From assembly GCF_003018235.1 (NCBI RefSeq), contig NZ_CP027437.1: a stretch of 64,000 nt of DNA, one strand, 5' to 3'. Of the stretch, positions 25,885-29,995 are shown in pieces; the stretch's first letter is position 1; each line of letters opens with the position of its first letter. The DNA is from Escherichia coli. Its GTDB lineage: Bacteria; Pseudomonadota; Gammaproteobacteria; Enterobacterales; Enterobacteriaceae. A model generated the notes under the pieces. The model was not told the DNA's origin, did no database searches, and worked only from the letters and a program-made list of their open reading frames with translations. Position numbers and translations under genes: made by a program.

Positions 25885-27180
25885 TTAATTTTTCATTGCT
25901 TCGTTATGGGGCATGGTTGGGGCAAACTCGCTTAACTGTGTATTTAACAAAGCTACCTGTGCATTATTGTTTTCAGACATCCATTTTCCGTATACCTGAA
26001 ATACCATTTGCGCATCTGCATGGCCCATCTGGTTTGCTATAAATGCCGGGTTAGCACCAGCTGTCAGCGACCAGCAGGCATAAGTATGTCTCGACTGATA
26101 TGATTTTCGATGGCGGAGTCCGGCACGTTTTATCGCTGCGTCCCACATCTGCCTTATTGAGTCAACGGTAAAATGGTCACCATAATTTTTTACTCTCGCT
26201 GACACTTCAGGTTGAAAAACAAAGGTGCATTTTTGTTTTTCTGTTCTGCCATACTCTCTGAGGTGAACATCAATGATATGCTCTTTGCTCAGTCTCGTTA
26301 ATGTCATCTGACTCCGGAGAGCGTCGATTGCTGGCTTAATAAGATGAATGACCCGATTGGTTCCCGCCTGTGTTTTTGGTACCGTGAAACGGTCTTTTGC
26401 TAAATTTCTCCTGATCATCATTGTTCCATTTTTCAGATCTATGTCCTCCCATCCAAGTGCACACAGCTCACCAGGGCGAACGCCAGTATAAACAGAAACA
26501 CACCATAAATTTTTTGCTTGCTGATTTCTGCACGCATCGATAAGACGGATAAATTCCTCCCGCGAAAGAGGATCCGGAATGGTTCTTGATTCCTTTAATG
26601 GCGAGATCCCCTTAAACGGATTATCTGGCAGGTAACCGTTATCAACACCAAACTGGAACACGGCGTTAAGATTTGTCATGTAATTATTTACAGTTACAGC
26701 CGATCTCCCTGGTTGTGTAACAATATAGTTACTTTTGGGGATCTGGTATCCAGTCAGTAGCTCTTTACGAACCTCCAGTAATTTTTCTTTATTAATCGAT
26801 GAGGCAAGATTTTTTTCACCGATTATGCTCAGGATATTTTTGATGACGGCACGGTATGTGTTGAGTGATGTTTTGGCGACTTCAGTTTCTTTCAGTGCCA
26901 GAAATTTTTCAGCCAGTTCTTTTATGGTTAAATCTTGTCGGGCCTCACCAAATTTTTCCAGATTGCGTGAGGAGGGAAACTGTTTTGCATAGTCGAAAAC
27001 ACCAGTTTTTATTGCGTAACAAACAGAGGAGCGTAGTTCACCTGCAACGCGCCTGTTTTTTGCTGTGTCAGGAACCCCCAGATTTTCCCTGACTCTTACG
27101 CCTTTATAAACAAACCAGATACGTAATTTCCATCCATGGTTTTCCACGCCTGTCGGATATTTCATTTCAACTTCTCTCAT
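25885..27180 (-). CDS. intQ: Prophage tyrosine integrase (lambda Int family), apparently intact
   Basis: 431-aa ORF (alternative start MKYPTGVENHGWKL at 27165); C-terminal catalytic region with R...HxxR...Y residues (RHRKSYQSRHTYACW... MGHADAQMVFQVYGKW); adjacent to attachment junction. Confidence 0.85.
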   Translation of the reverse strand: MREVEMKYPTGVENHGWKLRIWFVYKGVRVRENLGVPDTAKNRRVAGELRSSVCYAIKTGVFDYAKQFPSSRNLEKFGEARQDLTIKELAEKFLALKETEVAKTSLNTYRAVIKNILSIIGEKNLASSINKEKLLEVRKELLTGYQIPKSNYIVTQPGRSAVTVNNYMTNLNAVFQFGVDNGYLPDNPFKGISPLKESRTIPDPLSREEFIRLIDACRNQQAKNLWCVSVYTGVRPGELCALGWEDIDLKNGTMMIRRNLAKDRFTVPKTQAGTNRVIHLIKPAIDALRSQMTLTRLSKEHIIDVHLREYGRTEKQKCTFVFQPEVSARVKNYGDHFTVDSIRQMWDAAIKRAGLRHRKSYQSRHTYACWSLTAGANPAFIANQMGHADAQMVFQVYGKWMSENNNAQVALLNTQLSEFAPTMPHNEAMKN

Positions 27181-27199
27181 TAGTTAGTGTGGCTTTTAG

Positions 27200-27451
27200 T
27201 CAAGTAAGATGACGTCTTGGTCTCGCTGATGCCTGGCGCAAAATCCAGCGATCAATTTCTTCCAGGTTGTAAAAGCATGGACTGTTATCCCATGGCATAC
27301 CGTCATGAGCGACATGCTTATATTCCCTTCCTTCCATAAACGATTTTTCCCGGGCCTTTTTTAACGTACCTTTTTTTATTCCTTTCAGCGCAATTAACTG
27401 CTCTTCGGATACCCATTTGCCGGGAGAGACAATCATGATTACTTCGCTCAT
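27200..27451 (-). CDS. Putative excisionase / small DNA-binding protein
   Basis: 83-aa basic ORF immediately upstream of int on the same strand, the usual xis position; sequence itself is not diagnostic to me. Confidence 0.5.
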   Translation of the reverse strand: MSEVIMIVSPGKWVSEEQLIALKGIKKGTLKKAREKSFMEGREYKHVAHDGMPWDNSPCFYNLEEIDRWILRQASARPRRHLT

Positions 27452-27523
27452 CGATTTCTTTATCTCTTACATCAGACGAGCGCCGGTTGCAGAATACCAG
27501 TCACAACCGGCGACAGTTGAACA

Positions 27524-29995
27524 TTAAGAATCAGCCTGACTCGGGATCAGTTTTTGCCAGATAACTGAAACGTATTTTGCCTGGTAACGGGCGTCATCAA
27601 GTGCATTATGGCGCTCACCTTCGAATGGAATAGCCGTTCTGGCATCGAAGTCTATGGCTTTCCCCAGCTCAACGATTGTGCGTACATCGCGATCGTTGTA
27701 GTAACGCCACGGGCAGGGGATCCCCTGCCGTTCGTATGAACGGCGCAAAATCGTGTTGTCGAAGTTGGCTCCATTTCCCCAAACCTGAACAAAAAATTCA
27801 CCGGAGTTTTCGTCGATAAATTCCCGCAATTGTAACAGTGCATCATCTAACGGGATTTCATCGGTCATAATGGCAGATTGCGCTTCGCGTGATTGCTTAA
27901 GCCACCATTTAATGGTGTCCCGATCAATGACTCCGCCAGCAGTTTCCAGATCGATAGTCTTACTAAATTCCGGTCCCATATCTCCGGTTTGCGGATCGAA
28001 AAATATTGCACCTATTGAGATGATCGGGGCATCAGGATTTTTTCCCATGGTTTCAAGGTCGATCATTAGATGGTCACACGTCCTGCTGGTGGATGTGATT
28101 TCGTGATGACCGTTCACCTTAATTGAGTGATCTGCCGTCTCGCCAGTTTCATTATCGCTATTGTGATGCTGATTGCCGCCAGTGTTCTCCTTGTGTGGAT
28201 GTTCAGCGCCTTCCATTTCCTCCGGATCATCTTCCTGAACTTCAACCTGATACTCTTCATCGAATGTTTCTTGGTATGTTGCGTCGCCCATCACCGCGCC
28301 ACAATCAGGGCAGTTGCCGCCGCCGGTCTGACCGCAGGCGGTGCAGACTTTTTCCACTTCCTGTTGCGCCACTGGTTCAGGCTGTTTCGTTTCTGGCTCG
28401 TTTTGTAACGCATTTGTGCTGTTTTGTTCCGCTTTTTGGTAGTTCCGTTCCGATTCATGCTGGTTCTGGTTCACAGAATCGCGGGTCTGGATCCCCTTAA
28501 CCCATTTCGGATCATTCGGGTCACTAATCCCTTCAACAAATTCACCACGTGATGCAGCAAGCAACTTATCGGCGTCAGGCTGGCTGATATTGGCTGCCTG
28601 CATAATTTTGTTTACTTCGTCAGCGGTAACTTTTATCGGCTCTGGTTGTTCTGAATCTTCAGCGGTATCTACATTTTGCGGTAAGCCCGTGTATGTGCCA
28701 TTTTTTCGGGCAAAATATTCTTCTTTTGTGATTTCAGTGGCGCCAGCAGCCAGTGCCTTATCCAGACCAGAAAGTTTGTTTGCGCGACCGTATTTTTCTC
28801 CGTCCTTATCTGCGAAGAGGAAATAGAACGGCCCCTCACGCTCTACAGATGGTTCAGCTTCCGGCGCGGTTTCATTTTTTGGGATATCAGATACCTCAGT
28901 TTCCACTGCATCAGTTTGTGTTTCTGATGACTGGAGAACATCAACAGTGCCCAGGTCTGTTTCTTCATTCTCAAACACGCCCTTTGTCGTCAGGTATTCG
29001 CAGATATATTTGTTCAGTGCTATGGGATCTTTGTGAATGTCGATCGGACGCTCACGGACAAGGCCAAAAATAGTCTGGCGGTCGTAGCGAAGGGCATCAG
29101 GCTGTTTGCGCATTGATGCCGAGATACGCTTCCAGTCTTCGCGGTCGTTGTCGATAACTTCTTTTTTTGCCCAGCGATGGATGCTGCCGTCAATGTTTCC
29201 GGCATCCACATCACCAGGCCAGAGAGCGTAGGCCAGTTCGTCATCCAGTGTTTTCCATGTCTGCTTGTATTCGCGATGAATGGCAGCAATGACCGGGCTG
29301 ATTTTTCCTGTTGAATTTTCAGTGTACTGTTGATTGGCTCTGGCGCGGGCGAGATCAACAACAGACGTGTATTTTCCGGTTTCCTTGCGTTCACCTTCGC
29401 GACGTTTTTTCCAGATGCGCATCTCTGCCTGAATTTCGGGCCATTTAGCACCAGGAATACATTTATGCTTAACCCACCCAATGGCGTGCAACTTAAGCTC
29501 CGGATACATGGCGTTAACTTCTGGCATTTTCATCAACGCTTCAACGATATGTCCGTCGAATGTTGCCATGTCTTCCTGCAACAATTCCTGTGCGCTAATA
29601 ACCATATCAACGGTGATGTTTTCACATGTGTCGAACTTAACCATGACAGCGTTCTGTACTTCAGGGGCCAGCTTGTCAAAAGTGACGTTCATCGGATCGG
29701 ATTCAGTCTCAACCGGGACAAAAGAAGCAGACTCCTCATCCCAGCGGTTTTCCTGCATATATTCAGCATCCCATGAATCGAGGGCAGGGCGGGGTATGCC
29801 AGGTTTATCCTCGCAGACAATAAATTTATAAGCGCAGTCCTGAGCAGCCGGATAATGTTCCAGGAACTGCCAGTGAAATTTTGCTCGAGCACGGCGTTCG
29901 TCGCCAGCTTCAATGGCTGTGGCTACAGCCACAGCGCCTTCTTCCCTTGTTGCCAGTTCGTCAGGAATAGCGGCGCAAATAAAGACTTTACTCAT
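27524..29995 (-). CDS. Large prophage protein with C-terminal DnaQ-like 3'-5' exonuclease domain (full-length YdfE-like; annotated in related prophages as exodeoxyribonuclease VIII)
   Basis: 823 aa; C-terminal ~190 aa carries exonuclease-type acidic motifs ([26 protein letters not shown]); central CxxC...CxxC ([16 protein letters not shown]); acidic low-complexity linker. Confidence 0.7.
   Translation of the reverse strand: [823 protein letters not shown]

Follow-up and report, generated by a model that had tools for sequence, protein, structure and literature searches.

Genes at the integration end of the prophage

Three consecutive minus-strand open reading frames (ORFs), all uninterrupted in the ORF list of the window (the whole 64,000-nucleotide stretch of Escherichia coli DNA that was analysed and to which all positions refer), lie between positions 25885 and 29995. 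They encode a tyrosine integrase (Int), an excisionase (Xis) and an 823-residue protein, the product of a gene called exo here, which ends in a DEDDh exonuclease domain. A first-pass annotation, made from the sequence without database searches, had reported the three ORFs with these lengths and at these positions, and its description of them is accurate.

25885-27180, minus strand: tyrosine integrase ORF, 431 residues; the probable start at 27165 gives 426 residues
27200-27451, minus strand: excisionase ORF, 83 residues (PF06806, phrog_539)
27524-29995, minus strand: full-length YdfE, 823 residues, a RecE-like scaffold with a predicted DEDDh 3'-5' exonuclease

Exact copies of the proteins are present on 25 (Int), 16 (Xis) and 714 (the 823-residue protein) contigs, which rules out chance ORFs. 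The gaps between the genes are short, 72 bp between exo and xis and 19 bp between xis and int. The order at this end is ynfA, rspA and rspB on the plus strand, followed by the int-xis-exo ORFs. Here rspB is followed by a 5' fragment of ydfJ and then by int, which places the insertion in ydfJ, in synteny with the Qin prophage of K-12 and with phage HannyBb. A tRNA integration site was ruled out, as the window contains no tRNA genes. The locus can be identified as the integration-excision end of a Qin-type (HannyBb-like) lambdoid prophage in its uninterrupted, wild-type form. The interpretation as a whole, which joins this identity to the roles of Int and Xis, the architecture and mechanism of the 823-residue protein and the silence of the module, is in our estimation likely to be correct.

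Comparison with K-12 Qin

The window and K-12 Qin share the insertion site, the 11-bp attachment (att) core and 98–99% DNA identity wherever both are present, so that the common lineage proposed in the first-pass annotation is borne out. Its statement that K-12 has an intQ pseudogene interrupted by an insertion sequence (IS) and a truncated ydfE was also right: ydfE, insD7 (inside IS2E) and intQ, which adjoin ynfP and rspB, are annotated pseudogenes in K-12.

27045-29228, no strand: segment missing from K-12 Qin, which has a 705-bp IS2E remnant instead (alignment to K-12)
25755-25883, plus strand: ynfP-like ORF, the 5' part of host ydfJ, which the prophage interrupts, fused to phage sequence (translation, K-12 annotation of ynfP and ydfJ)

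Identity to K-12 is 98.4% over 20593-27044 and 99.3% over 29229-30840. The 2184 bp between these two segments have no K-12 counterpart, and hence int codons 1–45, all of xis and exo codons 257–823 are lost in K-12. An alignment with the K-12 ydfE and intQ fragments, which the first-pass annotation had suggested as a check, agrees with this: K-12 YdfE corresponds to residues 1–256 of the 823-residue protein at 100% identity, and intQ has no counterpart of int codons 1–45. The K-12 arrangement is the result of an IS2-associated deletion that joined exo codons 1–256 to int codon ~46. K-12 Qin differs further from the window in that it is also devoid of head and tail genes and keeps dicA, dicC, ydfABC and relBE, none of which the window has. 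The earlier description of the window prophage as less decayed is thus right for the int end and the morphogenesis genes and wrong for the control region, which an IS100-associated deletion has removed (see below). Excision of Qin is undetectable in K-12 and intQ is regarded as inactive (PMC3105296). Prophages at the Qin site vary from 11 to 97 kb across strains (PMC6379469).

Integrase, excisionase and att site

The arm-binding domain of Int is recognised by PF12167 (1.6e-22) and its catalytic domain by PF00589 (4e-18; 66.2 bits, cut-off 27.1), and the protein matches phrog_1 in PHROGs. The RefSeq start for the same gene is M6, which accounts for the length of 426 residues. In an alignment with Tn1549 Int (6emy) and with IntR of the Rac prophage, the catalytic positions are taken by R235, R364, H387 and Y397, the nucleophile. 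Box II (HxxR) has a tyrosine, Y361, instead of its His, as it does in Rac IntR (YHTRH), and the classical RHRY tetrad becomes R-Y-R-Y plus H387. The R/H/R/Y residues announced in the first-pass annotation are therefore present except for the box II His, and the catalytic tyrosine, whose absence had been named there among the grounds for rejecting its reading, is in place.

The closest comparison is with Rac. IntR aligns with Int from end to end at 43% identity, shares its Y-x-x-R-H variant of box II and has its domains in the same order. Rac, whose IntR carries Tyr in box II, is excision-proficient (PMC4632033). IntR and XisR of Rac differ from the window proteins in their att site. Compared with XisR, the Xis of the window belongs to the DUF1233 family. 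It matches PF06806 at 1.2e-30 and phrog_539 ('excisionase') at 2.1e-34, and is named 'xisR/excisionase family protein' in RefSeq, in agreement with the xis position noted in the first-pass annotation.

25837-25847, no strand: att core TTATGGATTTC at the int-proximal junction of prophage and chromosome; one copy in the window

K-12 Qin is flanked on both ends by a direct repeat of the 11-mer GAAATCCATAA. Its reverse complement is TTATGGATTTC, which occurs a single time in the window and also in the attP of HannyBb, 38 bp past the int stop codon. The window is homologous to HannyBb from 25832 onwards, with the 5' part of host ydfJ to the left of this point. The shared 11-mer, the start of homology and the host ydfJ sequence together define the att core and the int-proximal junction. 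The predicted roles are those of a tyrosine recombinase of the lambda type for Int and of its directionality factor for Xis, both acting on the core TTATGGATTTC.

Architecture of the 823-residue protein

Three segments can be told apart in the protein.

27524-28075, minus strand: codons 641–823, DEDDh (Rv2179c-like) exonuclease domain (PF16473, catalytic residues, DexA match, Foldseek)
28121-29260, minus strand: codons 246–625, homologous to the N-terminal half of RecE; domains C and D, acidic linkers and a CxxC-x7-CxxC motif (NF007259, BLASTP, AlphaFold2)
29228-29995, minus strand: codons 1–256, YdfE_N/YdfE_C, the sole part of exo kept in K-12 (identity to K-12 YdfE, phrog_5943, PF27430/PF27432)

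The AlphaFold2 model, with confidence given as the predicted local distance difference test score (pLDDT), divides them as follows.

Residues 1–100: domain A, alpha/beta, pLDDT mostly >90
Residues 105–206: domain B, helical, pLDDT >90
Residues 245–340: domain C, helical, pLDDT >90
Residues 386–435: domain D, small beta/alpha, pLDDT mostly 88–96
Residues 345–383 and 439–640: acidic disordered stretches of low confidence, with the CxxC-x7-CxxC motif at 551–565
Residues 640–820: DEDDh domain, pLDDT 60–87

The C-terminal domain has the clearest assignment. The Rv2179c-like family PF16473 matches residues 642–813 at 2.3e-67 (226.5 bits against a gathering score of 27) and over profile positions 2–177 of 177, and all five DEDDh residues are present (D646, E648, D746, H796 and D801), in support of the DnaQ-like exonuclease that the first-pass annotation had placed there. 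T4 DexA (8kel) is the only sequence match of the whole protein in the Protein Data Bank (PDB), and it aligns to the C-terminus. Foldseek matches of the domain are DexA, RNase T, Orn, REXO2, ERI and Cap18, with a probability of 1.00 to both 8kel DexA and RNase T and a target-normalised TM-score of ~0.6, for a model whose pLDDT in this domain is only 60–87. T4 DexA, RNase T and Rv2179c have the same catalytic residues and fold as residues 640–820, but they are single-domain proteins of ~170–230 residues, whereas here the domain is carried on a 640-residue scaffold.

The N-terminal residues 1–256 had no match in an older Pfam release; the newer families YdfE_N (PF27430) and YdfE_C (PF27432) are recorded for the exact protein. 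The region is predicted with a pLDDT of >90, yet a structure search gave no fold match. Residues 246–625 match the RecE equivalog profile NF007259 at 5.2e-84, with a score of 282.9 bits against a cut-off of 1269 and over profile positions 271–602 only. BLASTP aligns residues 262–625 with residues 278–591 of K-12 RecE at 39% identity, with near-identity in places, and the RecE-homologous segment is 78% identical at the DNA level. The N-terminal half of RecE is itself of unknown function (PMC11611040). The N-terminal ~450 residues, to which the first-pass annotation could assign no domain, can in part be assigned through these two family matches, and it was right in so far as neither comes with a known function. 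It had also said that a match to a well-characterised family such as RecE would count against its view; the match exists in name, to a part of RecE that is uncharacterised (PMC11611040). Most of the 823-residue protein thus still has no known function.

The protein is a chimera of YdfE_N/C, a non-catalytic module shared with the N-terminal half of RecE, and a DEDDh nuclease that takes the place of the PD-(D/E)XK nuclease.

Relationship to RecE

In Rac, recE occupies the same operon position as exo does here, between kil-type genes and xis-int, and the two proteins are alike in the middle region (RecE 278–591), the CxxC-x7-CxxC motif and the acidic linkers. Some phage records go further and label the protein 'exodeoxyribonuclease VIII', that is, as an orthologue of RecE, a 5'-3' exonuclease for double-stranded DNA that feeds an annealase; the NF007259 match (5e-84) and the 39% identity to RecE across ~360 residues would speak for such an assignment. 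We consider it highly improbable. The NF007259 score stays far under the cut-off and reflects the middle of the profile only, while the regions that make RecE what it is are different. Its C-terminal PD-(D/E)XK nuclease (PF12684, also DUF3799; RecE residues 564–866) has no match in the 823-residue protein in a Pfam search, in which PF16473 occupies that place, and phmmer with RecE 600–866 finds other members of the family and not the 823-residue DEDDh type. Its Exonuc_VIII N-terminal domain (PF06630) has no match either, with YdfE_N/YdfE_C found instead. RecE has a RecT partner, a 5'-3' nuclease and the PF06630 N-terminus; the 823-residue protein has a DEDDh nuclease of the presumed 3'-5' class, the YdfE_N/C region and no annealase, as the 72 bp between exo and xis hold neither recT nor any other annealase gene. 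The identification with RecE was rejected on its domain content: the score stays below the profile cut-off and the PD-(D/E)XK domain and PF06630 are missing, as is a recT neighbour.

The label 'exodeoxyribonuclease VIII / ds DNA exonuclease' stands on the DEDDh-type protein in several phage genomes (e.g. PV340562.1, OV696610.1 and ON470612.1). It looks like a mis-annotation that has been propagated because the middle region is shared with RecE. It is the wrong name for a protein that has no annealase partner and whose nuclease would belong to the opposite polarity class.

The N-terminal half of RecE is known to boost linear-linear recombineering. That half is a module shared with other effectors, and comparative work on the family could help to explain its role.

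A proposed scaffold with exchangeable C-terminal domains

A search with residues 1–640 against 1.84 billion representatives retrieved only 247 clusters, and the family is therefore narrow. When the modules of its long members were mapped with Pfam and PHROGs, the N-terminus was found to be either of the YdfE type or of the RecE type (PF06630), the middle region to be common and the C-terminus to vary, with the modules combining freely. A DEDDh C-terminus is found, for example, in family members P0003 and P0009, the latter of which joins it to a RecE-type N-terminus, and a PD-(D/E)XK C-terminus (PF12684) in P0012, P0024, P0116 and RecE. A third class (P0010, P0015, P0017, P0035, P0051, P0065, P0093 and others in alignment A4) has an end domain of ~190 residues with a phrog_7838 match, belongs to phrog_2489 and is annotated 'exonuclease'. 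Eleven of 13 members of this class give sub-threshold matches to Pfam Rad52_Rad22 in the end domain (best E 0.0015), and a profile search of PDB sequences gave no match. The domain may be a fused Rad52-like annealase, which is a hint and not a result.

The genes that follow also differ between the types. DEDDh members have xis and int directly downstream (the window and loci L004, L009 and L014–L016); RecE is followed by recT in Rac, and the PD-(D/E)XK member P0012 by a gene that is RecT-like according to PHROGs.

From this arrangement we tentatively propose that the ~640-residue non-catalytic region shared with RecE could be a swappable delivery scaffold of enterobacterial lambdoid phages that carries at least three kinds of recombination effector, namely a 5'-3' PD-(D/E)XK exonuclease, a 3'-5' DEDDh exonuclease or a probable Rad52-like annealase (phrog_2489), and that the scaffold rather than the nuclease might define the system. 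The scaffold would presumably attach at DNA ends to one and the same partner, from the host or from the phage. We regard this idea as less likely than not. A point against the overall interpretation of the 823-residue protein is that the link between nuclease type and the presence of an annealase is based on few loci; in one of them, the PD-(D/E)XK member P0116 is followed by a 271-residue gene product of unknown family. BLASTP of the genes downstream of P0012 and P0116 against K-12 RecT gave no match for either, and PHROGs classes one as RecT-like and the other as unknown. A full-text literature search found no paper on a swappable scaffold of this kind, and Lopes et al. 2010 make no mention of such scaffold-effector fusions.

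Two further arrangements occur in the family. In locus L011, of the third class, the scaffold gene is flanked by Gam-like and Mu-Gam-like genes. P0007 (702 residues; loci L005–L007) has a C-terminal region of ~260 residues with a phrog_26058 match and no Pfam or PDB match, which may be a fourth effector module carried by this scaffold. The P0007 loci have a SIR2_2 gene at their edge.

Predicted activity of the exonuclease

By its domain, the 823-residue protein would be a Mg2+-dependent 3'-5' exonuclease. The RecE-like region would guide this nuclease to whatever partner or substrate RecE has, probably DNA ends, early in lytic development, and the enzyme would act without an annealase. DNA is more likely to be the substrate than RNA, because no structural relative is closer than DexA and the scaffold is found joined to recombination effectors.

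Two points weigh against this assignment: polarity and substrate, DNA or RNA, are both read from the domain family, and the names that Pfam and NCBI give to the PF16473-type domain are those of an exoribonuclease. The nuclease could accordingly be an exoribonuclease of the Rv2179c/RNase T kind, which in early lytic growth would trim or destroy RNAs of the host or of the phage. The Pfam family takes its name from a 3'-5' exoribonuclease, NCBI attaches '3'-5' exoribonuclease' to some copies, RNase T, Orn, REXO2 and ERI, all of them neighbours in fold, are RNases, and the gene lies in an operon with a heavily processed transcript (bioRxiv 10.1101/2023.04.14.536235). However, the top match among solved structures, both in sequence and in fold, is the DNA exonuclease T4 DexA, and the scaffold is common to RecE and, probably, to a fusion with a Rad52-like annealase, which points to DNA transactions. 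These considerations make an RNA substrate unlikely. RNase T also trims DNA, which further weakens the case for an enzyme that acts on RNA only.

A role in anti-defence or host takeover, such as the degradation of a host immune nucleic acid or signal, would remove the protein from recombination altogether. Its gene does lie in the early-left accessory region beside host-modulating genes of the kil/dicB type, and an annealase partner is missing; the fold matches include Cap18, an example of the DEDDh nucleases that are met with in defence contexts; and the domain by itself is common among phages of many different hosts (750 records). The scaffold shared with RecE and with annealase-like fusions favours metabolism of DNA ends instead, and we consider the anti-defence role unlikely. 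A 3'-5' exonuclease directed to DNA ends thus stays the preferred description of the 823-residue protein.

IS100 and loss of the control region

The operon to which the three genes belong has the order dicF-dicB-ydfD-exo-xis-int, and an IS element lies upstream of it.

30089-30280, minus strand: ydfD, lysis protein (DUF1482), upstream in the exo operon (Pfam, tblastn)
30277-30465, minus strand: dicB, cell-division inhibitor of 62 residues (profile matches, tblastn)
30640-30691, minus strand: DicF small RNA (Rfam RF00039, 72.5 bits)
30846-32800, plus strand: IS100 (IS21 family), which replaces the immunity/replication module and dicBp (comparison with HannyBb and STEC299)

A 97-residue ORF listed for dicB is an artefactual upstream extension of the 62-residue gene product.

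About 3.8 kb that are present in both strain STEC299 and phage HannyBb (L012 4365-8141) are missing from the window, with IS100 in their place. They hold the repressor, cro-like, cII/YdaT-like, O-like and Ren-like genes and part of a methylase gene. In tblastn searches, DicA, DicC, YdfA, YdfC, YdaT and O were found nowhere in the window, and DicB, YdfD, QueH, HokD, YdfU and Q were present. IS100 has an in-frame stop at codon 271 of istA. No target-site duplication was found at its ends, which fits an IS-mediated deletion of the adjacent sequence.

The K-12 ydfABC-dicF-dicB-ydfDE transcript has its start at dicBp, which lies upstream of ydfA and is the sole promoter detected for it (bioRxiv 10.1101/2023.04.14.536235). 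As the dicBp region is deleted in the window, dicF-dicB-ydfD-exo-xis-int is probably left without a promoter. In the window strain the module is probably not expressed and the prophage probably cannot be induced, because the IS100-associated deletion took the DicA/DicC switch, the replication genes and dicBp. By its gene content, this prophage is defective in a different way from K-12 Qin.

An excisable, inducible prophage with a fully functional module would be the alternative. In its favour, int and xis are intact ORFs that nearly match their counterparts in a viable phage, and the window has the att core as well as structural, lysis and Q genes. Set against these are the deletion of the repressor, cro, cII-like and O-like genes together with dicBp, which is the only documented promoter of the operon, and a rare change in Int. 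Residue 17 of Int is W, while it is G in 14 of 14 other members of its 90% cluster that were examined and in HannyBb. The change, G17W, falls inside the PF12167 region, and an intact int ORF alone is no proof of activity. The second att site, moreover, lies outside the window, which ends in tail genes. A functional prophage seems improbable on this balance.

Silence of the operon combined with an otherwise intact integration end, which we prefer, has its own weak points. The silence is deduced from the loss of the known promoter. A scan of 25600-31000 for consensus promoters and terminators yielded fewer promoter-like sites than in shuffled sequence and none upstream of dicF on the minus strand, a result that is uninformative either way. 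The G17W substitution affects the arm-type DNA-binding domain of Int and is absent from the 14 other cluster members, and the second att junction is beyond the window, the end of which falls inside tail genes.

The genes that are toxic to division or cause lysis (DicF, dicB and ydfD) have been kept, and the repressor DicA and dicBp are gone. The loss of the promoter may be what makes the loss of the repressor tolerable.

Distribution in E. coli and in free phages

The intact int-xis-exo module is already known from the annotation of RefSeq and phage genomes, and its decay in K-12 is documented. Of 5426 complete E. coli genomes, 2256 cover at least 80% of the 4951-bp region 25700-30650 at a single place, where the annotations read 'exonuclease / 3'-5' exonuclease', 'xisR excisionase family protein' and 'tyrosine-type recombinase/integrase'. 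The 823-residue protein belongs to a 90% cluster of 23183 members, and its exact sequence is found on 714 contigs. As ~40% of complete E. coli genomes, and isolated phages too, have intact versions of the K-12 Qin remnants, the locus is an ordinary one; what the comparison adds is the exact extent of the K-12 loss (2184 bp) and the definition of the att core.

Isolated phages that encode the 823-residue protein are HannyBb (99.6% protein identity), PhiR42_1, Tritos, mEp460_ev081 and Evi. HannyBb (PP925841.1; 45,272 bp) has int (431 residues), xis (83 residues) and exo (823 residues) in the same order, and it matches the window in three segments.

25832-30854 (int-xis-exo-ydfD-dicB): 99.4% DNA identity
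32801-37167: 99.6% identity
45812-63083: 95–96% identity

Int, Xis and the 823-residue protein differ from their HannyBb counterparts by 3, 1 and 3 residues, respectively, with G17W as one of the three differences in Int. HannyBb, whose relatives include Tritos, PhiR42_1 and mEp460, has the same attP core as the window and collinear Q, lysis and morphogenesis genes. It differs in having the 3.8-kb module of repressor, cro, cII-like, O-like and Ren-like genes where the window has IS100.

Other genes of the prophage

The prophage carries a homologue of the epoxyqueuosine reductase QueH (32956-33621, plus strand), a tRNA-modification gene on a lambdoid phage. It is also present in STEC299 and, as a 'hypothetical protein', in HannyBb, and it is absent from K-12 Qin. 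A toxin-antitoxin locus of the hok/sok type spans 34068-34389, with the sok RNA at 34068-34242 and hokD at 34237-34389; the relBE insertion found beside hokD in K-12 Qin is absent from the window. Two 5' leaders of the cspA thermoregulator type (Rfam RF01766), at 39490-39913 and 42390-42775 on the plus strand, belong to cold-shock genes of the prophage (cspB/cspI region).

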